Shown here piece by piece: positions 26,531 through 37,306 of a DNA stretch of 64,000 bases. The DNA is from Sulfurospirillaceae bacterium. GTDB lineage: Bacteria > Campylobacterota > Campylobacteria > Campylobacterales > Sulfurospirillaceae. The translations under genes were made by a program, and so were the position numbers. The notes under the pieces are model-generated. The model saw only the letters and a list, made by a program, of their open reading frames with translations. It did not search any database and had not been told where the DNA came from. The stretch spans positions 28,805 through 92,804 of the forward strand of contig JAWVXD010000009.1 of the NCBI GenBank assembly GCA_033723415.1, read 5' to 3'. Each line of letters begins with the position of its first letter. Position 1 is the first letter of the stretch.

Positions 26531-26959
26531 ATGAACAAAACTAAAATCTTCTTATTAATCGTTGTCTTGGCCGTGTTGATTCAGTTTATACCTTACGGAA
26601 AAGATCATGTAAATCCGCAAGTCGTAAGCTCACCAAAATGGGATAGCCCAAAAACTAAACAGCTGTTTGATAACACTTGTGCCGATTGTCATAGTTTTGA
26701 GACAAAGTGGCCTTGGTACAGTAAAATAGCTCCAGTCTCTTGGTTAGTTTACAGTGATGTTCAAGAAGGTCGTGAACATTTTAATGTTTCAGCTTGGGGC
26801 GTACAAAAGAAAAACAAAGGTGATGAAGCAGCAAAAGCGGTAGAAGAGGGTGATATGCCGATGTTTATCTATCCTTGGATGCATCCAAAAGCCAGACTAT
26901 CCGACCAAGATAAAAAAGATCTTATCTCAGGATTAAAAGCAACTTTCGGAGAAAAATAA
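26531..26959 (+). CDS. Haem-binding domain protein (c-type cytochrome, Haem_bd)
   Basis: N-terminal TM, CADCHS, WPWYSKIAPVSW, MP distal ligand. Confidence 0.88.
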   Translation: MNKTKIFLLIVVLAVLIQFIPYGKDHVNPQVVSSPKWDSPKTKQLFDNTCADCHSFETKWPWYSKIAPVSWLVYSDVQEGREHFNVSAWGVQKKNKGDEAAKAVEEGDMPMFIYPWMHPKARLSDQDKKDLISGLKATFGEK

Positions 26960-27013: not shown

Positions 27014-27028
27014 CTGTCCCTGAGATTC
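27014..27028. repeat. Partial right arm of the island palindromic element (left edge of island)
   Basis: CTGTCCCTGAGATTC resembles CTGTCACCGGAATT and CTGTACCCGAAATTC in other copies. Confidence 0.4.
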
Positions 27029-27214
27029 TATGTACTTTCAACATTATTTTCGCATACTTTAATGCATATTTTTTAGTTTATTCCAAGCTGTTTTACATAT
27101 AATAATAGTGTTCTAGCGCAGAAGTGACCGTGCCTGCGAGAATAGGAAATCTCTTGCAGAGTTTCCTTAACCGTGTAAAATTGCGATGGAGTACTGAGAG
27201 CTTAAAGGGAAAGA

Positions 27215-28015
27215 ATGGAATGTAAACGCATAAAAACAGTATATTTTTCACCAACAAGAACAACAAAAAAAGTCTTAGAAAGTATCGCCTATGGAATCGG
27301 TGCTGATGAGGTTGAGGATTTTGATTTGACATATCCCCTAAACACTCAGCAAACAATCGCAACATCTTCAGATGAAATTGTTATTTTCGGAGCACCTGTA
27401 TATGCCGGTCGTTTGCCTGTTGAAGCAGTCCGGCGTTTTAAACAATTAAGAGCAAACAATACCTTGGCTATTATCGTAGTCGTGTATGGAAATAGAGAAT
27501 TTGAAGATGCCTTGTTAGAGTTAAAAAATCTAGTGATCGAATTAGGATTTACTCCTATCGCAGGAGGTGCTTTTATAGGAGAACACTCATACTCAACAGA
27601 TGAAACTCCTATCGCTAAGGGAAGACCGGATCGTTTGGATATTCAAAATACAATGGAATTTAGTCTAAAGATAAAAGAAAAAATCAAAACTTTATCAACA
27701 CCTCAAATGCAAATTGATTTAGAAATTCCCGGTAATTTCCCATATAAAGATGCAATGCCGCCTAACAAAGTTGCTCCGGTAACAGATAAAAATCTTTGTA
27801 ATGAATGCGGTATGTGTATTGATCTTTGTCCGATGGAAGCTATTTTTCTTGAAGAGCATATCAAAACAAATGCTGAATTATGTATTCGTTGTTGTGCTTG
27901 TATCAAGAATTGTCCTAATGAAGCCAAAGTGATTGAAGATAGTGCGTGGAAAGCGATAGGTGCTAGATTAAACGCAAATTGTAGCACACGGAAAGAACCA
28001 CAATTTTTTCTATAA
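27215..28015 (+). CDS. EFR1-family flavodoxin-fold/4Fe-4S ferredoxin protein
   Basis: YFSPTRTT, PVYAGR, YGNREFEDALLEL, CNECGMCIDLCP, CIRCCACIKNCP. Confidence 0.85.
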   Translation: MECKRIKTVYFSPTRTTKKVLESIAYGIGADEVEDFDLTYPLNTQQTIATSSDEIVIFGAPVYAGRLPVEAVRRFKQLRANNTLAIIVVVYGNREFEDALLELKNLVIELGFTPIAGGAFIGEHSYSTDETPIAKGRPDRLDIQNTMEFSLKIKEKIKTLSTPQMQIDLEIPGNFPYKDAMPPNKVAPVTDKNLCNECGMCIDLCPMEAIFLEEHIKTNAELCIRCCACIKNCPNEAKVIEDSAWKAIGARLNANCSTRKEPQFFL

Positions 28016-28079
28016 AGTTTCTAATCTTCGGGATTGGTAGATGATTAGAAATATTGTTTTATGAAATTCTCAAGCCGGC

Positions 28080-28613
28080 TTATTCTTTCTCATCCATAAG
28101 GCGTTGATACTCTTTTTCCATGACGATATCCTGAGTGCTTTCAATGCGATCAAGAAAAACGGTAGCGATGAGGTGGTCGTATTCATGTTGAAAAAGACGC
28201 GCTAAAAAATCTTTGAAAATCGCATGTTGTTCTTTTCCTTGCCTGTCAAAATAGCTGACTTCTACTTGTGTATGTCTTGGAACGCGCGCGCGAATACCGG
28301 GCAAACTCAAACACCCCTCCCAATCTTTCACGCTTTTCTCTGAGACTGATATGATGCGAGGGTTGATCAGTGCGGTTGGCTCCATCATCGGGGCATGCGG
28401 ATAGCGTTTATTTGGAGAAGAAGCCATGATGATAATACACAAAGATTGCCCGACTTGCGGTGCGGCAATGCCCATGCCTTTAGACTCTTTACAAGTAAAG
28501 ATCATATCGTCTATCAATGCTTGTGTTTGGAGCGCATGAATGTCGCTCACCTTTTGCGCGATGGTGCGTATAACAGGAGCACCAAGTTGCGATATATTTA
28601 AAATTTGAGGCAT
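28080..28613 (-). CDS. def: Peptide deformylase
   Basis: GMGIAAPQ, EGCLS, QHEYDH. Confidence 0.95.
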   Translation of the reverse strand: MPQILNISQLGAPVIRTIAQKVSDIHALQTQALIDDMIFTCKESKGMGIAAPQVGQSLCIIIMASSPNKRYPHAPMMEPTALINPRIISVSEKSVKDWEGCLSLPGIRARVPRHTQVEVSYFDRQGKEQHAIFKDFLARLFQHEYDHLIATVFLDRIESTQDIVMEKEYQRLMDEKE

Positions 28614-28684
28614 CCGGTATTCCTTTGATCTTTCATTTTGTCATCATATTATGATTTATAACACTATATCGCATATAAACTTAT

Positions 28685-29263
28685 TTATAAAAGATGTTTT
28701 ATAAGCATCTTCTCTTCTTCGACTGAGAGATAACGCCACTTGCCGATTTCAATGTCCAGCTTAAAGCTGCCTATGCTAACTCTTTTTAAATCTAAAACCT
28801 TTAAGGGTGTGCCAAATTTTGGGTCTTTGAGTGCTCCGAAAAGTCGGCGTATATGACGATTTTTCCCCTCGTCGATTATGACTCTTAGTTTTGTTTTCGC
28901 ACCGCCCGTGCTTATCTTTTGTACTTCAAGAGCTTTGAGCAGACCGTGTGGGCTTTGCACTCCATGTAAAGCCTCTGCGATAAGTTCATCGCTCACATGA
29001 CCTCTGACCCAGATCTCGTAAACTTTCATGCAATTGCCTGGTTTGGTCAAAGCATCTCCGATTTTGCCCTCAGTTGTAAAGAGTAAAAGCCCTTTAGATT
29101 CTAGATCAAGACGTCCGATAGGCATCCATCCCTCGTTAAAGGCCCACTCAGGCAAAAGATCATAGACTGTTTTTCTCCCAAGTTCATCAGAACGTGTGAC
29201 CACGTAACCTTTGGGCTTATTGAGGACTAACAGTTTTTTTGAATCTTTTGTTGTTCTGTTCAT
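28685..29263 (-). CDS. RsuA/RluE-family pseudouridine synthase without S4 domain
   Basis: NKPKGYV, GRLD catalytic Asp, EGKNRHIRR. Confidence 0.88.
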   Translation of the reverse strand: MNRTTKDSKKLLVLNKPKGYVVTRSDELGRKTVYDLLPEWAFNEGWMPIGRLDLESKGLLLFTTEGKIGDALTKPGNCMKVYEIWVRGHVSDELIAEALHGVQSPHGLLKALEVQKISTGGAKTKLRVIIDEGKNRHIRRLFGALKDPKFGTPLKVLDLKRVSIGSFKLDIEIGKWRYLSVEEEKMLIKHLL

Positions 29264-29402
29264 CAGAAGTATTCCTTAGGTGTTCACAGTCAGAACTATG
29301 TTTAAGAACATTATATATGGCAGAGCTTGGATCTAGCTAAATAAATGGAGATAATTAGACACTTTATCTACTAAATTTTGGAATTTCTACACAGAATTTT
29401 TT

Positions 29403-30122
29403 TTAGTAGATCCACGGTATCAAACGATAGCGTACACGCTGCGTATAATCCAGATATCCGGATAACTCTTCCTTAAGTGTTCGGTCTTCTAAAGCAGTTC
29501 TGATCACGGATATTATAAGCGCCACTATGGCAGGGATGAGCACCCACACCGAGCTAAATGCTAACATCATGCCAGGAAGTGCCAGCAGATTTCCTGCATA
29601 ACCTGGATGTCGTACGAGCCGATAAGGACCGCTATCGCAGAGTGAATGTCCCCGATCCGTTTGGATATGCACAGTAGAGGAGAAAAAACGGTTCTCTACT
29701 AAAGCCCAGGAGGCAAATGCGTACCCCAGTGCGATGATAACAAGACCTAAGATGTTCAGCCAAGTAGAGAACTGAGGTGTCCACTCATAGCGGTGATCAA
29801 GTCCTGCAACGATAACAATGGGAAATGTGAGACTAATCGCCATAAGCGGAGAAAGCACCTTGTCCCATGGTTTTGCATTGAGCGTTTTTTCCGAGGTAAA
29901 CCGTTCTACCAAAATTCCCGGATGCCGTTTTTCTGCCAAGAAACGTCCGCCTATACCTGCTGCAAATATCAGCACTAAATATACCCAAGCCTGCCACCAG
30001 AGTAAATCTCCTCCGCAAACAAGTAAAAGTAGAGGGATGAAAAGATACGTGAAAGACAAAGCTAACCAAAGGCTAGGACTTGGGGATTGAGATATATTTG
30101 GATCAACGGTTTTTGGTGTCAT
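29403..30122 (-). CDS. Isoprenylcysteine carboxyl methyltransferase / PEMT-family membrane protein
   Basis: ENRFFS, GPYRLVRHPGYAG, EDRTL, RYRLIP. Confidence 0.88.
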   Translation of the reverse strand: MTPKTVDPNISQSPSPSLWLALSFTYLFIPLLLLVCGGDLLWWQAWVYLVLIFAAGIGGRFLAEKRHPGILVERFTSEKTLNAKPWDKVLSPLMAISLTFPIVIVAGLDHRYEWTPQFSTWLNILGLVIIALGYAFASWALVENRFFSSTVHIQTDRGHSLCDSGPYRLVRHPGYAGNLLALPGMMLAFSSVWVLIPAIVALIISVIRTALEDRTLKEELSGYLDYTQRVRYRLIPWIY

Positions 30123-30144
30123 CTTTTACTCCTAAACAAAGTCG

Positions 30145-30239
30145 TAATCTCAATGAATGGCTATCTTAACAAGCTCATTGCAAGTAAAAAAGCTTGGGCT
30201 TAGTGATTACAACAATTTGGTAAACTGTCATCGTAATTC
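30145..30239. repeat. Palindromic island element, degenerate copy
   Basis: Right arm TTGGTAAACTGTCATCGTAATTC matches TAGGTAAACTGTC at 34978 and ends 6 bp from the LOG stop; left arm weak. Confidence 0.55.
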
Positions 30240-30245
30240 TCGTTC

Positions 30246-30803
30246 TTACCATTTCTCTTTTGGTGGGATATACTCTTGGATAGCTTTCAATAGTTTTTCT
30301 TGGTCATTAGTTCTGATCAACATATCAGAATACTCTTGTTTTAAAAATTTTGCATCACACATAGTATCTATCATCTCAAATAGCTTATCATAAAATCCAT
30401 TTACATTGAAAAAAGCGCAAGCTTTCGTATGAAATCCAAGTTGTGCCCAGGTCCAAACCTCAAAAATCTCTTCTAAAGTTCCGGCACCTCCTGGAAGTAC
30501 GACAAAAGCATCAGCTAACTCTGCCATTACCGCTTTTCTCTCATGCATATCTGCAACTATTTTTAAATCAGTTATTCCGTCATGAGCTAACTCTTTTTCT
30601 TGTAATTTTTCAGGAATCACTCCATAAACTTTTCCACCGTTTTTCATCACAGAATCTGCAAGTGTCCCCATAAGTCCAACTTTTCCACCACCATAAACTA
30701 CATCCACATTATTTTGTGCAAAAAATTTACCTAGTTGTTCTGTGGCATTGGTATACTTTATATCATCTCCGCTGCTTGATCCACAAAAAACTGCAATTTT
30801 CAT
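30246..30803 (-). CDS. LOG-family (TIGR00730) nucleotide phosphoribohydrolase
   Basis: VFCGSS, VYGGG, GLMG, MHERK, PGGAGTLEE; ATG at 30803. Confidence 0.92.
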   Translation of the reverse strand: MKIAVFCGSSSGDDIKYTNATEQLGKFFAQNNVDVVYGGGKVGLMGTLADSVMKNGGKVYGVIPEKLQEKELAHDGITDLKIVADMHERKAVMAELADAFVVLPGGAGTLEEIFEVWTWAQLGFHTKACAFFNVNGFYDKLFEMIDTMCDAKFLKQEYSDMLIRTNDQEKLLKAIQEYIPPKEKW

Positions 30804-30884
30804 AAGTATATTTCCTTTTATCCTTTGAATCGGTTGAATAAAGATTTTATCTAATTTCAACTACTGTACAAATTAAAATAAATG

Positions 30885-30964
30885 GAACTCCAAGGACAGT
30901 ATACTTAGCTCTGGATTCTTCATCTATAACGATTTTTTAGTTAGCTATCCTGTACCCGAAATTC
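30885..30964. repeat. Palindromic island element, full copy
   Basis: GAACTCCAAGGACAGTATACTTAG...ATAACGATTTTTTAGTTAGCTATCCTGTACCCGAAATTC; close direct repeat of 31641-31718. Confidence 0.85.
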
Positions 30965-30970
30965 GTCTTT

Positions 30971-31534
30971 TTATTTTTCTGTCAAAAATGCCATAATTTT
31001 CTCAAAGTGTCGCTCGATCCCTTCAAAACTATGATTGCCGCCTTCTTCTAAAATCGTTTGAGCATGAGGCAGTGCGTCACAAGCTTCTGCATAGTCCAAA
31101 ACTTCATCGCCTTTTTGAAGTAAGAGTAAGATAGCCTTTTCTTCCGGCTCTTCAATCTCGTAATTAACCAGCATATCAAGGTGTGATTCATTCCACTCGT
31201 AGCTTGAGTCATCATAATAATTCACCCCATGCCCAAGCGCTTGATGCAGTGTTTCAGGAGCATTAACTGCAGGATTGATAAGCACGGCTTTGAGGTTGTA
31301 TTTATCACTTAAATAGAGTGCATAATACCCACCCAAAGAAGAGCCGATCAGATAAACAGGTTCATGTTCTAGATAGGACTCGATCAGTTCACTCAGCGTT
31401 TTAATAGCCAAATCAGGAATATTAGGCAAAGATGGAGCGATAAAACGGATCTGTTTTTGAGCACAATAAGAACGTAAAGCCTTCGCCTTATTTGCCTCTC
31501 CACTTGAACCAAATCCGTGAATATAGATAATCAT
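30971..31534 (-). CDS. YqiA/YcfP-family alpha/beta hydrolase (esterase)
   Basis: YIHGFGSS, GSSLGG, INPA, GDEVLD, GGNHSF; ATG at 31534. Confidence 0.9.
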   Translation of the reverse strand: MIIYIHGFGSSGEANKAKALRSYCAQKQIRFIAPSLPNIPDLAIKTLSELIESYLEHEPVYLIGSSLGGYYALYLSDKYNLKAVLINPAVNAPETLHQALGHGVNYYDDSSYEWNESHLDMLVNYEIEEPEEKAILLLLQKGDEVLDYAEACDALPHAQTILEEGGNHSFEGIERHFEKIMAFLTEK

Positions 31535-31640
31535 CACACATCCTTTATATGTAAATATAAAATTGTAGTGTAACATATATTCATAAAAAACGTTATCTTT
31601 AGAATCCATATAGTAATGCCAAAAAAGCTGCAATTTGATG

Positions 31641-31718
31641 GAGTTCTGGTGAATATATCTAACTTTATATTCTTCATAGATAACGATTTTTTAGTTAGGT
31701 ATCCTATTCCACGAATTC
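31641..31718. repeat. Palindromic island element, full copy
   Basis: GAGTTCTGGTGAATATATCTAAC...ATAACGATTTTTTAGTTAGGTATCCTATTCCACGAATTC. Confidence 0.85.
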
Positions 31719-31799
31719 ACTGCAGTATCTCAGATAAAAACAAGTCATTTTATATATAATGTTTGTTAAACAAATAGTGAGACAAGGAGGTACCAGGAT

Positions 31800-32528
31800 A
31801 TGAACTCTGAACGCATCGCGCTTGTAACCGGAGCAAATAAAGGAATCGGGCTGCAAGTTGCACGAGAACTTGCCCTGTTGGGTTATACTGTCTTGATTGG
31901 GGCTCGCTCAAAGACCCTCGGGATGGAAGTTGCAGCAAAATTCACCGAAGAGGGTTTTCGTGCTGTCTTTATCCCGATCGATGTCACCGATCCCTCCACG
32001 ATCAGCGTAGCGGCGAGGGATATAAACGAACGCTTTGGGAGACTTGATGTTCTCATCAACAATGCAGGTATTTGCCTAGATGCGGGATTGCTACCGAGTC
32101 AGGTCAGTTTGGAAATACTTCGCAAAACCTTTGATACCAACGTTTTTGGCGCTTTTTCAGTTTTACAAACGATGCTTCCATTGCTGCGCAAATCTGTAGC
32201 AGCAAGAGTGGTCAATATGTCATCCGGATTGGGTTCATTGACTTTAAACAGTGATCCAAACTATGAGTTTGCACAGTTTAAATTGCTCGCATACAATGCG
32301 TCCAAAACCGCGCTAAATGCGATGACAGTTCAATTTGCTCATGAATTGAAAGGCTCCTCCATAAAGATCAACTCAGCCGATCCTGGTTTTACGGCAACGG
32401 ATCTCAATGGTCACCGAGGTATCGGCACTACGGAGCAGGCAGCATCGATCGTGTTGAGACTTGCTACTCTTCCGGAATCCGGACCAAACGGTGGATTTTT
32501 TGATCAAAATGGACAAGTTCCTTGGTGA
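31800..32528 (+). CDS. Short-chain dehydrogenase/reductase (carbonyl reductase-like)
   Basis: TGANKGIG, NNAG, YNASK, PGFTATDLN; AAGGAGG RBS; visibly GC-richer than core genes. Confidence 0.92.
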   Translation: MNSERIALVTGANKGIGLQVARELALLGYTVLIGARSKTLGMEVAAKFTEEGFRAVFIPIDVTDPSTISVAARDINERFGRLDVLINNAGICLDAGLLPSQVSLEILRKTFDTNVFGAFSVLQTMLPLLRKSVAARVVNMSSGLGSLTLNSDPNYEFAQFKLLAYNASKTALNAMTVQFAHELKGSSIKINSADPGFTATDLNGHRGIGTTEQAASIVLRLATLPESGPNGGFFDQNGQVPW

Positions 32529-32548
32529 AACGCTCTAACCATCATAGG

Positions 32549-32595
32549 CAATTCTAGTGACAGTATCCCTAATTCCATATTCTTTACATGTAAAG
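32549..32595. repeat. Left half of a palindromic island element, interrupted
   Basis: AATTCTAGTGACAGTATCCCTAATTCCATATTCTT matches the left arms of other copies. Confidence 0.7.
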
Positions 32596-32598
32596 CGT

Positions 32599-32923
32599 TT
32601 CTCTCTGTACTTTTTTCTCCGCAAAAAAGTACCAAAACAAGCGAAGCGTTCTCGAAGAGATGTTTCCTTGAAAAAGCTCTTGCAACGGCTTCGAGCTTGA
32701 CTTTGTCAAGTTCCCAAGAAATAGTAAATCCATTCCTAAAAATGCAAAACTCACTTCGTTCAAACAGTTGCATTTTCTTAACGTCATTACTTTACTATTT
32801 CTCGGCTCTGCAGATGTTGCAACTGATGCACAATTCTGGATAGCGTTTTATGATTGGATATGGTTTATGGGGACAGGCTACTTTTTATATTCTTCTCTTA
32901 TTTTCTATGTTTACATATAAAGA
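32599..32923. repeat. Long structured repeat, copy A (MITE/REPIN-like or ncRNA)
   Basis: Near-identical to 34681-34968 apart from a ~37-bp insertion; nested inverted repeats. Confidence 0.9.
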
Positions 32924-32968
32924 AATTGGAAGGATAAAAATAGAAACTATTTAAAGTAGCCTGTCCCC
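32869..32968. repeat. 100-bp element with perfect 16-bp terminal inverted repeats
   Basis: GGGGACAGGCTACTTT (32869-32884) and AAAGTAGCCTGTCCCC (32953-32968). Confidence 0.9.
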
Positions 32969-32990
32969 TTTATGTCGTTTTTTTATGTAT

Positions 32991-33025
32991 AAAGATTTTT
33001 TAATTAGCTATCTGTCACCGGAATT
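32991..33025. repeat. Right half of a palindromic island element, overlapping the aminotransferase stop
   Basis: AAAGATTTTTTAATTAGCTATCTGTCACCGGAATT. Confidence 0.8.
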
Positions 33026-34150
33026 TTTTATTTCATTTAAAGCTGCGATAAACCTGTCAATATCGTTATGATTATTGTAATAATGCAAAGATACACGAAC
33101 TCCTTCTCCTCGCTTTGCGACAATAATATTTTTAGCTTTTAGACTTCCTACAATATTGCTAGCATTTGGGACTGCAAATGATGTGATGCCAGACCTATTC
33201 TCTTGTTCAAGTGGAGAAAGAATCTGTATATTGTGATTTTGTAGCTGCCTACGAAGATAATTTGATAGGTGATGGATCCTTTCAGAAATGTTATCGATTC
33301 CTATTTTATTGAGAGTATCTATTGCTCCACCAAGCGCAAGAATATTAGGAAACTGTGGGTGACCCAACTCTAAAGCCTTTGCATTATTTGCTATAACTAG
33401 CCGATTATTAAGTAACTTAGATGGATCACTAGCACTCTGCCAACCAACTGCAGGAAACTTTGATGAATCATGGAACTTTTTGTTGATAAAAAAACCTGCA
33501 ATACCACAACCAGCATTGAGCCACTTGTAACCGGTGAACACCAAAAAATCAATATTGGCAGAACATACATCAATATTGAATGCTCCAGCAGATTGACTTG
33601 CATCAACAACCAAATGTATGCCTAAACTCTTACAAAGCGCTCCTAGCTCTTCAAGGTTTTGACGAAATCCAGTTGTAAATTGAACGTGACTTATGACAAT
33701 GATTTTTATAGATGGCGTGATAGCTGAATTAAATTGATCTACGGTAGTTTTTCCATCCGATTCAACATCTATAAATTTCACATTATAGCCATGCTGAAGC
33801 CAGGGAAGAGAACATGATGGAAACTCATCAGAACGCATTAGTACATCACCAACATTATCCAGAATTTCTGCTATATAGTTCATTCCAAGAGAAGAGTTGG
33901 GTAGAAAGGCTATTTCATTTGAGTTGCCACCAACAAACTTTGCGATGTCCTCTCTGGTTTTTACAATTTTATCTGACCATTTATCCCAAAGTGTATTTCC
34001 ATATTGCAAAGACTCCTCATAATAAGATTTACCCCCGTTAGATGCGCTCCTTGATACAGGGCCTTGTCCAGCTGTATTTAAATAAACAAACTGCTCGCAG
34101 GCTGGAATGTCTTTCCGGAGTGTTTCCCAATCTATTGAATGCTTTTCCAT
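33008..34150 (-). CDS. Class V PLP-dependent aminotransferase-fold enzyme
   Basis: YLNTAGQGP, SHVQFTTG, VDASQSAG, TGYKWL (PLP Lys), RVSLHYYN. Confidence 0.9.
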   Translation of the reverse strand: MEKHSIDWETLRKDIPACEQFVYLNTAGQGPVSRSASNGGKSYYEESLQYGNTLWDKWSDKIVKTREDIAKFVGGNSNEIAFLPNSSLGMNYIAEILDNVGDVLMRSDEFPSCSLPWLQHGYNVKFIDVESDGKTTVDQFNSAITPSIKIIVISHVQFTTGFRQNLEELGALCKSLGIHLVVDASQSAGAFNIDVCSANIDFLVFTGYKWLNAGCGIAGFFINKKFHDSSKFPAVGWQSASDPSKLLNNRLVIANNAKALELGHPQFPNILALGGAIDTLNKIGIDNISERIHHLSNYLRRQLQNHNIQILSPLEQENRSGITSFAVPNASNIVGSLKAKNIIVAKRGEGVRVSLHYYNNHNDIDRFIAALNEIKNSGDR

Positions 34151-34171
34151 AAAAATTGTCTCTCCTTTTAA

Positions 34172-34555
34172 TCAGCTGTTTATGACAGCCGCAATTGCTT
34201 CAATCTCGATCTGAAAGCCAAAATGCAGCTCACGAGTAGGAACAACAGCTCTTGCAGGACGATGGTCACCAAAAAAGCGGGCATACGTTGCGTTGACACG
34301 ATCCCATAACGTAATATCAGAGATATATATGGTCACTTTGAGTACATGATTTTTGTCACTATGTGACTGTTTTAAAATGACTTCCAAATTATTTAATGCT
34401 TGCTCTGTTTGCTCTTCAATGTTACCGACGTGCTTATCACTGCTCTTAGGATTTATGGGAAGTTGGCCAGAAACATAGATTAATCCTCGATGCTCAATAG
34501 CTTGAGAATAGTGCCCAGCGGGTTGAGGAGCATCATTCGATAATATTTTTTTCAT
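34172..34555 (-). CDS. RidA/YjgF-family enamine-imine deaminase
   Basis: PAGHYSQA, VSGQLP, RPARAVV (catalytic Arg), IEIEAIA. Confidence 0.93.
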   Translation of the reverse strand: MKKILSNDAPQPAGHYSQAIEHRGLIYVSGQLPINPKSSDKHVGNIEEQTEQALNNLEVILKQSHSDKNHVLKVTIYISDITLWDRVNATYARFFGDHRPARAVVPTRELHFGFQIEIEAIAAVINS

Positions 34556-34581
34556 GTAAAACTCCTATATTGATTATGAGA

Positions 34582-34680
34582 GAGGTTCGGTGACATTATA
34601 CCTAACTCTATATTTCTCAATCTACATGTAGAGGTTATATTCTTCACATATAAAAGATTTTTTAGTTAGGTATCCTGTCC
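34582..34680. repeat. Palindromic island element, full copy
   Basis: Left arm GGTGACATTATACCTAACT; right arm AGTTAGGTATCCTGTCC; internal AAAGATTTTTTAG. Confidence 0.85.
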
Positions 34681-34995
34681 TTCTCTCCATACTTTTTTCT
34701 CCGCAAAAAAGTACCAAAAAGCTCTTGCAACGGCTTCGAGCCTAACTTCGTTAGGTTCCCAATAAATAGTAAATCCATTCCTAAAAATGCAAAACTCACT
34801 TCGTTCAAACAGTTGCATTTTCTTAACGTCATTTCTTTATTATTTCTCGGCTCTGCAGATGTTGCAACTGATGGACAAGTCTGGATAGCGTTTTATTATT
34901 GGATATGGTTAATGAGGACATGCTACTCTTTATATCTTTCTCTTGTTCTCTATCCTTATATGTAAAGATTTTTTAATTAGGTAAACTGTCTCCCT
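34681..34995. repeat. Long structured repeat, copy B, ending in an element right arm
   Basis: Matches 32599-32923, then AAAGATTTTTTAATTAGGTAAACTGTCTCCC running up to the stop codon at 34996. Confidence 0.9.
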
Positions 34996-35187
34996 TTATT
35001 CTTCTTTCACATAAACTGCTAGGTAAGTGATTGTTGGTTTTCCTAATCCTAAACAGCCGGGCTGTTGAATTTGAAATACTGAATGAAATTTGTATCCATC
35101 TGAAGCATAAGAAGTAAAGCGTTTCTCTAGACCAGAGATAGCTTTATTTGAAAACTCAGCACCGATTGATTCTATTTTATATTGCAT
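34996..35187 (-). CDS. Small hypothetical protein (DUF4177-like)
   Basis: AAGGAG RBS; YK...YASDGYKFHSV...GCLG pattern; overlaps the upstream yidD-like gene. Confidence 0.65.
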   Translation of the reverse strand: MQYKIESIGAEFSNKAISGLEKRFTSYASDGYKFHSVFQIQQPGCLGLGKPTITYLAVYVKEE

Positions 35188-35546
35188 GATTTCTCCTTTT
35201 TACATGAAAGATCTACTCCTCCTCTGCCTGGGCGACATCGGAAGAGCCTTTTTATTGTAAGTATTACACCTATGAGTAAACCGTTTTCTCTAATTGCCAA
35301 TTCACTGTAATGTGAGCAACTTGGTTCATAAACACACCTATTACCGATATGTGTTGGTCGATATTTACGATAAAATCGTAATGAGTGTACTGCAATTTTT
35401 ATATGAAATGGAATTCCTGATATAGGCAGTGACTGTATTTCCGTATCTGTTTTTGTCGTTCCAGTTAATTTCCGTTCCAATGAAGGCCGCAAATATTCTT
35501 CTACATTTAAATCTAAACTAGCACCTTTTATTTCTAATCTATCCAT
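35172..35546 (-). CDS. YidD-like (membrane protein insertion efficiency factor) domain protein with N-terminal extension
   Basis: FYR...RCVYEPSCSHYSELAI...RLFRCRPGRGGVD; ATG 35546 lies downstream of the attC-like site. Confidence 0.78.
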   Translation of the reverse strand: MDRLEIKGASLDLNVEEYLRPSLERKLTGTTKTDTEIQSLPISGIPFHIKIAVHSLRFYRKYRPTHIGNRCVYEPSCSHYSELAIRENGLLIGVILTIKRLFRCRPGRGGVDLSCKKEKSCNIK

Positions 35547-35560
35547 TCTTATGTTCTCGT

Positions 35561-35632
35561 ACATAATGTTTAAAATTAGCAATCAAAAAGTCACTTGTGG
35601 GTTTTTGATTGGTCTCTTTTGGTTTGTTATAC
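35561..35632 (-). mobile_element. Integron attC-like recombination site, degenerate
   Basis: Minus strand: GTATAAC begins 1 nt after the stop, central 10-bp IR CAATCAAAAA/TTTTTGATTG, end ATTATGT (G of GTT replaced); 72 bp. Confidence 0.6.
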
Positions 35633-35633
35633 A

Positions 35634-36182
35634 TCATGCTTCTTCGAATTTTGCAATTACACGCTTAGCCAATTTGGCGTACTCTATAGCAGTCTTTGTA
35701 GAAATCTCATGATCAGAAATATGAACAGCTTCATTTCTGAGGTTTTTTAGTTTGTATAACATATCAAAAAGACCTTTACCAATATAGTTATAATCCAAGT
35801 CGTGCATATATATTGACTGGATCAGTTGCATAGGGCTCTTTATATGTTCATTTATTCCTTTTCTTTTACAATAAGAATTAAGAGTTTCTTCAACCTCTAG
35901 CCAAGCATCTAATATTGCTCCTCTAGGACTGTCCATAGCTAATCTATAAATACGTTCTTGCTTATCTTTATTCTCCAAACGTGGTAAGTTATTTTTATCT
36001 GCTTGCTTGGCAGCATCCTCAATCCCTTGTTGTAATTCGATTTCAGAATCTTTGTGCTTTATTCGTTTAATCCTTGATAATAATTGACCTAAGTCTTTTT
36101 TTAGCAACCATACTATAATTATGATGGAGAAAGGCCATGCTATTGAGGCAACGATAGTTTCAATAAATTTCATAATTTCCAT
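35634..36182 (-). CDS. Hypothetical protein with N-terminal TM (cassette-like ORF)
   Basis: GGAG RBS; IAWP TM; SPRGAILDAWLEVE and LRNEAVH (RxxxxH, HEPN-like) motifs. Confidence 0.75.
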   Translation of the reverse strand: MEIMKFIETIVASIAWPFSIIIIVWLLKKDLGQLLSRIKRIKHKDSEIELQQGIEDAAKQADKNNLPRLENKDKQERIYRLAMDSPRGAILDAWLEVEETLNSYCKRKGINEHIKSPMQLIQSIYMHDLDYNYIGKGLFDMLYKLKNLRNEAVHISDHEISTKTAIEYAKLAKRVIAKFEEA

Positions 36183-36274
36183 ATAACTCCGATTCTCAGA
36201 AACATAACTATTTATTAAGCCTCCATTATAGTCATATCATACTTAGCTAGAAATAAACATAAAGTAAAAATATT

Positions 36275-37306
36275 TTAACTCTGGATTATCTTCTCCAACG
36301 CCTCCACTTTCCCTTTCATATCCTCAGCCATCGTGAGTTCCGTAACCAAAGCGAAGCTTTTGGCGCCTCGGTTTACTATTTCGTTTAGGTTGTGTTCTTT
36401 GATACCGCCGATGGCGACAAATGGGATGGGGATATTCCCAGCGACAAATTCTAGGTACTGGACTCCGACGGTTGCGTAGTCTTTGGTTTGGGTGTCGTAT
36501 ATCGGGCCGACTCCGATGTAGTCTGCTCCCAGTTCCACGGCTTCTAGGGCTTGTTCTTTGGAGTGGGTTGAGAGACCGATGATCTTGTCGTCGCCTACTA
36601 ATTTTCGCACTTCGCCCAGAGGCCAGTCGTCTTGTCCGATGTGCACGCCGTCTGCATCGACCATCATGGCAAGTTCTACATGATCATTGACGATGAAAAC
36701 GACTCCGGCTCTTCGTGTCATCTCTCGCAAGATCAGGGCTTCATCATACATCTCTCTTAGGGTTTTGTCTTTTTCTCGATACTGGACGACTTTGATACCG
36801 CAGTCTATCATGTCGCGTACGACTTCTACATTGGTTCTGCCGTTTGAGAATTTTGAAAAGGTGATACCGTAGATTCCCTCCGGCAAGGAGTTCTTTTTGC
36901 TACGCTCCATCAGTTCTTTTTCAAGATAGTAAAGTTCATATCTTAGTGCTTCGTAGCTTTTGCCGACTTCGTACATATCGTCTGTTGTTTTTAGTATCTC
37001 TTCGATCACGCGTATCGCTTCTAGTGCTCGTTTGAAGTTTGCGAAAATACTCTGTGAGATCGACGCTTTTTTGTCTATCTTACTCTCTTTTGAGACGGAT
37101 TTGCCGATGTCATGATCTGAGTCTCTGTGTTTGAGAAGATGGGTGTCGATACTTGCTAGGTTCTTTCTGATCTTGTGTCTGACGTCACGTAGTTTTTTTG
37201 TTAGGTTTTCATCTTCAAAATGAAACCTGCAGATGTCTTCAACCACGCGGATACCCTCTGCCGCTCGATTTACGTTGGCATCTAAAATCCTGTATATCTT
37301 TACCAT
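36275..37306 (-). CDS. thiE: Thiamine-phosphate synthase with N-terminal ThiD2-like domain
   Basis: RILDANVNRAAEGIRVVED N-domain; QYREK, VNDH, DGVHIGQDD, GLSTH, AIGGI. Confidence 0.92.
   Translation of the reverse strand: MVKIYRILDANVNRAAEGIRVVEDICRFHFEDENLTKKLRDVRHKIRKNLASIDTHLLKHRDSDHDIGKSVSKESKIDKKASISQSIFANFKRALEAIRVIEEILKTTDDMYEVGKSYEALRYELYYLEKELMERSKKNSLPEGIYGITFSKFSNGRTNVEVVRDMIDCGIKVVQYREKDKTLREMYDEALILREMTRRAGVVFIVNDHVELAMMVDADGVHIGQDDWPLGEVRKLVGDDKIIGLSTHSKEQALEAVELGADYIGVGPIYDTQTKDYATVGVQYLEFVAGNIPIPFVAIGGIKEHNLNEIVNRGAKSFALVTELTMAEDMKGKVEALEKIIQS

Follow-up and report, generated by a model that had tools for sequence, protein, structure and literature searches.

Genes and junction sites of the island

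The window analyzed here is a stretch of 64,000 nucleotides (nt) from a Sulfurospirillaceae bacterium (C9:28805-92804 of assembly GCA_033723415.1, a genome of 2.43 Mb in 17 contigs with a GC content of ~0.34). Between a haem-binding cytochrome gene and a thiE fusion it holds an island of unrelated genes, among whose junctions copies of one repeat element recur. This element is a composite in which two terminal inverted repeats of the TIRtron family (hereafter arms) face each other across a central palindrome, TTTACATGTAAA (the core), and in related genomes two positions of it recur as joints between unlike sequences, the outer end of the arm and the core. Throughout, G000 denotes this host genome and other G-numbers its relatives, g1 is the host's own genus and g2-g6 are sister genera, L-numbers denote individual loci, and C1, C3, C9, C10 and C11 are contigs of the host genome.

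The first-pass annotation of this DNA had described unrelated genes of uneven GC content and mixed orientation, a picture that was upheld by family profile searches for the gene assignments and by GC values that run from 0.33 to 0.47 (Table 1). The junction repeat that it reported was recovered as a repeat family (D2) with copies at 30917, 31671, 32980, 34642 and 34953 and one weak member of 65%; a further family (D3) comprises three copies of 65 nt at island junctions. An nhmmer profile of four copies, run against the whole 2.43-Mb genome, gave strong matches in the island only, whereas single arms occur on other contigs (C1:434/1161, C1:79.7-82.5 kb, C3:217.6 and 223.1 kb, C11:73.0-74.1 kb), the first-pass annotation having noticed no copies elsewhere in the window. 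Arm scores at window sites are partly circular, window arms having been part of the training set, except for those from a matrix trained on five arms that all lie on contigs other than the island's; with this outside-trained matrix, 9 island arms fall within the top 49 of 127 genome matches above 11 bits, and the segment that holds them, 30.2-35.0 kb, is ~0.2% of the genome.

Resolved into arms, the island contains five head-to-head sites, all of one polarity and one of them split (32548-33027), a nested complete type-2 element and a solo arm. The inner element (32861-32976) and the left arm at 34906 are of this second arm type (GGGGACAGGCTACTTT), which is linked to another transposase clade. 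Right arms do lie at cargo stop codons as had been reported, 5 nt from the stops of the LOG and yqiA genes and overlapping those of the pyridoxal phosphate (PLP) enzyme gene and of the open reading frame (ORF) of 63 amino acids (aa) (34996); the PLP gene is full length, its last codons coming from the arm. For the copy placed at 30145-30239 the right arm is real (27.6 bits) but the left arm is missing (best score -2.4 bits), and the supposed remnants near 27014, 28045 and 29345 are background (3.1, 2.2 and 3.1-5.3 bits, in a genome with 861 sites above 5 bits), so that the EFR1, def and rsu genes are without recognizable bounding sites. The palindromic character ascribed to the element is borne out by the strong hairpin at 32861-32976 (z -7.2) but not by most copies (z from +1.2 to -2.2 relative to shuffled sequences). 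Ends resembling attC had been called absent; two copies do hold an internal RYYYAAC...GTTRRRY pair, but this pair belongs to the arm consensus. Both the central palindrome and a 253-nt direct repeat had been overlooked.

The junction element is real, yet it is a decayed composite of transposon end repeats around a worn palindrome. It has no match in Rfam at E<=1, one copy compared by blastn with 100 relatives gave short chance matches only, and the arm pattern occurs in 0 viral contigs. Type-1 arms are uncommon, given that the strict form of the pattern matches 8 of 401 genomes of the order. At their outer end these arms often have the sequence RAATTY, which we take to be the Campylobacter transformation-methylase motif; the match may be coincidence.

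The 253-nt direct repeat, segment X (91% identity; families D1 and D5), flanks the PLP-RidA pair and is borne out by contigs of the probable source run, with about double depth. Alignment of both copies shows that the two flanking repeats differ by 72 nt lying between two cores, and site f is therefore a type-2/type-1 hybrid. Segment X has no match in Rfam, and pieces related to it adjoin cores and arms in G024 and G046. As a separate observation, G004 has 8 copies of a 40-nt piece of X, borne within a long palindromic mini-element, and in G094 a 37-nt unit of X is present as four tandem copies (loci L203, L287-L291, L206).

Table 1. Features of the island and its borders (window coordinates)
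Feature	Position	Strand	Remarks
Haem-binding cytochrome gene	26531..26959	+	PF14376; conserved left border of the variable locus
EFR1-like flavodoxin-ferredoxin	27215..28015	+	Older resident of the locus; no significant arm
Peptide deformylase (def)	28080..28613	-	Accessory; no site at its ends
Pseudouridine synthase (rsu-like)	28685..29263	-	Accessory; no site at its ends
ICMT/PEMT-family membrane methyltransferase	29403..30122	-	GC 0.46
Solo type-1 TIRYT arm	30215..30240	-	Scores 21.0 bits with the outside-trained matrix; LOG stop lies 5 nt from its outer end
LOG-family gene	30246..30803	-	Cargo
Site b	30884..30965		Two type-1 arms head to head around a worn core
YqiA/UPF0227 esterase	30971..31534	-	Cargo; stop 5 nt from arm; near-core palindrome upstream at 31544
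Site c	31640..31719		Type-1 dimer, worn core
Short-chain dehydrogenase/reductase (SDR) oxidoreductase	31800..32528	+	Cargo; GC 0.47; opposite orientation
Site d, left half	32548..32594	+	Type-1 arm and the island's only exact core palindrome (32583-32594)
Segment X, copy 1	32598..32860		Non-coding repeat module; begins just after the core
Complete type-2 dimer	32861..32976		GGGGACAGGCTACTTT arms; core 32910-32921; strong hairpin
Site d, right half	32982..33027	-	Worn core and type-1 arm, which provides the PLP gene with its stop and final codons
Class-V PLP enzyme	33008..34150	-	Cargo
RidA/L-PSP gene	34172..34555	-	Cargo; with the PLP gene, between both X copies
Site e	34581..34690		Type-1 dimer; two cores 22 nt apart (34621, 34643); X truncates right arm
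Segment X, copy 2	34681..34905
Site f	34906..35001		Hybrid dimer; type-2 left half and type-1 right half joined at core 34955-34966
63-aa ORF and YidD-like ORF	34996..35582	-	Cargo pair
182-aa ORF	35634..36182	-	No Pfam family; no site at its ends
thiE fusion	36275..37306	-	Conserved right border

A TIRtron transposase as the source of the arms

A Y1/RAYT-like transposase encoded elsewhere, to act in trans, had been predicted, and such a gene is present on another contig: the sole Y1_Tnp gene of the genome (C1:455-1114; PF01797 above cut-off) is framed at C1:434 and C1:1161 by inverted repeats of the same GGGGACAG type as the island arms. Its product carries the NHVH and Y...NP motifs, with N59-H60-x-H62, Y119 and N123 invariant in 13 sequences, and a fold search matched it to TnpA-REP (best PDB match 4ER8) and to IS608 TnpA, while a sequence search of the PDB gave 0 matches. 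Y1_Tnp is its only Pfam match, the C-terminus is a short helical tail of lower confidence, and the closest named homologues are from Sulfurimonas and Arcobacteraceae. By sequence and fold the enzyme is a TIRYT, a member of TnpA-Y1 subclass 2.1, and on sequence grounds the island arms are terminal inverted repeats of the TIRtron family. TIRtrons, Y1/HUH genes framed by terminal inverted repeats, are known together with their dimers and clusters (Di Nocera et al. 2013, PMC3733652, in its accessible text), and the element is in this respect not new; subclass 2.1 is given as the second-largest group of Y1 transposases, found in 14.9% of strains, in the available part of Quentin et al. (2018, PMC6006769). 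Assignment to RAYT/REP was tried and rejected, the arm consensus having no GTAG/GTGG foot, 16 genome sites exceeding 20 bits and NF047646 scoring 57 bits against a cut-off of 80.

Among 80 homologue rows, some of which repeat the same loci, the GGGGWSAS motif stands on both sides of the gene in 27 and on at least one side in 52. Three arm types can be distinguished, each paired with its own transposase clade; the island has type 1, cognate to the Y1 gene of the genome, and type 2, whose close cognate gene is absent from it. In G101 three TIRtron copies share 99.7-99.9% identity across their whole arm-to-arm length of 791-792 nt, which suggests that TIRtrons move as arm-to-arm units. Inspection by eye showed no target-site duplication at TIRtron flanks, and a search of 120 genomes of the genus of G101 for an empty site of the G101 array gave no close allele.

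The outer end of the arm is identified as a joint by two observations: of 130 arms, 21 have a partial arm copy beginning 7 nt outside the GGGG on their outer side and 2 have one on their inner side, and gene fragments terminate exactly at outer arm ends. Partial copies with a fixed outer end and a variable other end also stutter outside many arms, including upstream of the host Y1 gene (L071, L072, L074, L076, L129, L137, L138, L179).

The central palindrome

The core came to light as the point at which the sequences of relatives diverge. It numbers 14-812 copies in 28 g3 genomes and 7-353 in g5, compared with 0-17 in g1 and 3 in the host, while a reversed-sequence control gives 0-4; g3 genomes carry ~1 core per 700 intergenic nt, and across 18 loci 59 copies lie in ORFs (308 kb) and 65 in intergenic DNA (45 kb). 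A genome-wide excess of the highly iterated palindrome (HIP) type is present in the sister genera and absent in the host. Within the island, five copies with at most one mismatch were found against 0.096 expected, 59 control palindromes giving 0-1, and several of these near-exact cores sit mid-site.

In palindrome-rich lineages the core lies on the inner side of 25 of 86 arms and on the outer side of 10, against a background of 10.8% of intergenic windows. Since other lineages have it with 2 of 126 arms, the core is a lineage-specific part of the site. It lies ~31 nt inside the upstream arm of type-2 TIRtrons, and 19 of 51 type-2 arms have a core on their inner side.

Break points in related genomes

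In six g3 genomes the end of a common thioredoxin-like gene runs up to a core, after which each genome continues with a different gene, and in four of these six genomes an arm stands at the stop of that gene. G049 has a seventh gene with an arm at this position, where G041 has none. Break ends were counted in alignments of 69 and 201 kb from two close genome pairs, for which 220 kb per genome had been taken. Of 34 ends, 8, which come from 7 of 17 events, have a core no more than 25 nt away in both genomes, against an expected 3-10% of intergenic positions (P ~0.003 on 32 ends), the 17 events not being independent, as one slot was counted twice and three are within-gene divergence. Blocks of 3574 nt and 372 nt are framed by direct core copies.

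The arms themselves are concentrated in variable DNA, which holds 10 of 14 and makes up 8-26% of the span, and of 16 arms, 8 have a genome-specific gene on the outside and 2 on the inside. One core-arm-X-MNT-HEPN-core module occurs in different neighbourhoods of G024 and G046 with 94-96% identity, ends at a core and contains a core-to-core indel. Placement of arms relative to coding sequence is modestly biased, with 66 of 98 arms following a stop (compared with 52%) and 17 of 98 within 15 nt of one (compared with 7.7%). Joints recur at two positions, the arm outer end and the core palindrome. The expectation that gain and loss would break at a fixed position is supported by this enrichment in relatives but not by a looser test on 15 hot-spot loci, where 6 of 50 alignment ends fall at cores with a background of 8%.

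Origins of the cargo

Comparison with G013, the complete genome of the closest relative, bore out the prediction that the cargo block is not syntenic. There thiE is 88% identical, the cytochrome orthologue (78%) stands next to recQ, an EFR1 homologue (70%) abuts thiE, and everything from def through the 182-aa ORF is absent from the locus, which carries instead a variable block of its own of 3.4 kb, without arms. G013 has no arm match, and its only Y1 gene is of IS200 size.

Mixed origins of the cargo are likewise supported, the yqiA, LOG, rsu and def genes being 68-87% like their sister-genus counterparts. Homologues of def (68-79%) occupy a variable def-rsu region of g3, and those of rsu (74-86%) have different neighbours. 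The LOG gene has a homologue of 82% in G017 and was not found in five of five same-genus genomes searched; yqiA has homologues of 84-87% in g3 and was found in one of the five same-genus genomes, at 53%. None of 60 family genomes has a homologue of the SDR gene at E<=1e-45. Of the 29 loci at which island-gene homologues were found, a few have a lone type-2 or type-3 arm nearby. The host itself contains a second, internally deleted rsu-like copy with 81-84% DNA identity (G000:C10:47683-47952).

A two-joint model and its alternatives

The reading that we favor, to which we give an even chance and which is drawn from sequence comparison, is that genes join the outer ends of arms and that core-bounded blocks enter by crossing-over at the core. 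The island would then consist of successive gene blocks linked by composite sites, two TIRYT repeats facing each other with the HIP-like TTTACATGTAAA between them. In a first step foreign genes would attach to the outer end of an arm at a fixed joint 7-8 nt outside the GGGG, most likely through an HUH enzyme acting on single-stranded DNA. In a second, core-arm-gene(s)-arm-core blocks would be gained or lost by the chromosome through crossing-over at the core, a step that would rebuild a head-to-head site at each junction, keep the sites co-oriented and yield hybrid sites, and that could be either a host process, as proposed for HIP1, or a reaction of the transposase. Given the age and decay of the sites in the host, and the origin of much of the DNA in sister genera rich in the palindrome, the array is probably no longer active but a relic. 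The two features give hints of a gene-swapping system other than integrons, and function as gene cassettes is plausible.

Several observations weigh against this model. No sites lie in the left third of the island, EFR1 already stood at the locus in G013, and the host's cognate TIRtron lacks a core, as do nearly all arms of the palindrome-poor lineages. The PLP homologue in G007 is bare, with no arm, core or RidA gene beside it; a type-1 dimer was found at 0 of the 29 loci with island-gene homologues; and among 169 arm-adjacent non-transposase ORFs, 0 belong to an arm-bounded unit shared between loci. Mobility of one- or two-gene cassettes, as originally proposed, is in part supported by gain and loss at sites in relatives, but not by cargo that is arm-bounded elsewhere. 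Among 455 shared segments, 0 have cores at both ends in both genomes, the junction that distinguishes G041 from G049 runs from core to microhomology rather than from core to core, and both the looser break-point test and the dependence among the 17 events count on the same side. Contigs of the probable source run, which drop rare forms, show no excised circle or excision joint, and two other runs of the same study gave short unrelated matches only.

The principal competing explanation holds that the dimers are passengers, non-autonomous TIRtron mini-copies resembling miniature inverted-repeat transposable elements (MITEs) or REPINs, which settle downstream of stop codons where the DNA is variable and under weak selection; genes would turn over there by ordinary homology-assisted or microhomology recombination, with the palindrome as a handy short match, and the transposase would move only itself and the mini-copies. 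We regard this as possible, if on the unlikely side. It would suit the 14 dimers in metagenomes, mostly single and beside ordinary genes in GC-rich hosts, a further point against cassettes, as well as a 156-nt dimer family that G105 carries at several loci and that resembles the end of its own TIRtron in its inner sequence. Equally in keeping with it are the armless variable block of G013, the modest preference of arms for stops, the density of cores in g3 intergenic DNA and the dimers and clusters of terminal inverted repeats already described (PMC3733652, accessible text). It accounts less well for different genes in one slot each bringing a different arm type at the stop, for the co-orientation and single-locus clustering of sites in the host, and for the same module being shared by two neighbourhoods. 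Among six small indels, a small sample from one genome pair, 0 were dimer-only, a further point against it, and 0 lay at cores or arms.

A stronger form of the two-joint model, in which TIRYT would do the cutting and joining at the core as well as at the arm end and each gene with one site would be excised and inserted like an integron cassette, is improbable in our view. The regular position of the core in type-2 TIRtrons would fit such an enzyme, as would the arrays of co-oriented dimers in G105 and G321 and the cutting and strand transfer of single-stranded repeats by HUH enzymes of the family in vitro (PMC8266576, in the part available). Yet a TIRYT-like gene is present in 52 of 61 family genomes and in 12 of 13 genomes of the host's own genus, which hold just 0-17 cores; the abundance of TTTACATGTAAA does not track the presence of the transposase, which also tells against the wider model, and since the palindrome is abundant regardless, crossing-over there need not involve the HUH enzyme. 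Dimers of other lineages, moreover, are without the core, and no integrase-adjacent primary site or promoter was identified.

Very unlikely indeed, and largely refuted, is the reading of the sites as degenerate attC sites of an integrase-less cassette cluster (CALIN): the internal RYYYAAC...GTTRRRY pair in two copies, the stops just before arms and the TIRtron of L075 near a tyrosine recombinase that we presume to resemble the integron integrase IntI would favor it, but IntI (TIGR02249) stays below cut-off throughout the genome, in line with the non-integron character first assigned, the pair is internal to the arm consensus and occurs around Y1 genes too, the genes are of mixed orientation, the hairpins are weak by eye and by folding, Rfam gives no match, and the 44-nt span in one copy is presumably shorter than attC sites.

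Relation to known systems and significance

With the TIRtrons of Di Nocera et al. the host system has in common GGGGWSAS inverted repeats, the NHVH and Y...NP motifs, the formation of dimers and clusters and a prevalence in epsilon-proteobacteria; as far as the accessible text of that paper extends, TIRtrons are described without cargo, a central crossover palindrome, break-point analysis or biochemistry of the subclass, whereas the island dimers delimit genes and carry a HIP-like core. To RAYT (TnpA-REP) and REP/REPIN systems the likeness lies in the fold and in non-autonomous paired repeats acted on in trans (PMC8266576, PMC5581495, available sections). The island arms differ in having neither a GTAG foot nor a short REP hairpin and in being few and clustered instead of numbering hundreds.

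HIP1 of cyanobacteria is a hyper-abundant palindrome of coding and non-coding DNA that has been proposed to flank precise excisions and to act in recombination or transformation (PMC4390886, PMC13756078, accessible parts). TTTACATGTAAA is similarly hyper-abundant in coding and non-coding DNA of the sister genera but is an AT-rich 12-mer of Campylobacterota, scarce in the host and tied to transposase end repeats. Integrons, CALINs and pdif arrays consist of one- or two-gene blocks between co-oriented imperfect palindromes behind stops, with crossing-over inside the site. The island matches them in outcome; it lacks IntI, XerC/D arms and probably the attC consensus structure, its sites derive from transposase ends, and its genes are of mixed orientation.

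The literature covered, from which supplements and most subscription papers are missing, holds no report of cargo capture by TIRtrons, of TTTACATGTAAA or of such break points. TIRtrons and their dimers are already known; the cargo between the dimers, the core and the break points at both appear to be new. That TIRYT repeats with a TTTACATGTAAA core might constitute an undescribed non-integron gene-cassette system of Campylobacterota, with the HUH enzyme attaching genes and the cores serving as landing sites, is a tentative proposal that we consider rather doubtful. The finding ties TIRYT (subclass 2.1) and the highly iterated palindromes together. The break points, arm end at -7/-8 and core centre, are exact substrates for assays. 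If the cassette reading is true, genes would be captured by a single-strand HUH enzyme in place of an integron integrase; if only the core reading is true, a HIP-like motif would become a testable landing site for foreign genes; and an undescribed cassette system would give a HIP-type palindrome a concrete function.

Other TIRtron contexts

Further arm-associated loci were noted apart from the island. At a contig end of the host the TIRtron lies beside a fused restriction-modification gene (G000:C1:1298-4000; L004, L048), and a 578-aa reverse transcriptase gene and a YafQ/RelB toxin-antitoxin pair at G000:C1:79692-82477 (L046) are flanked by arms and may form a defence module. The TIRtron of L075 (4092-10690) lies ~5 kb from the tyrosine recombinase gene, of 320 aa. 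In L071 and L073 TIRtrons are found within arrays of polymorphic-toxin modules (haemagglutinin-repeat or Rhs-like), with gene fragments cut at arm ends. An element resembling an insertion sequence, with long inverted ends, is located inside type-3 arms at three places (G015:C1:1577075-1580838, G048:C1:1869027-1874613), which suggests an insertion sequence that targets TIRYT repeats.

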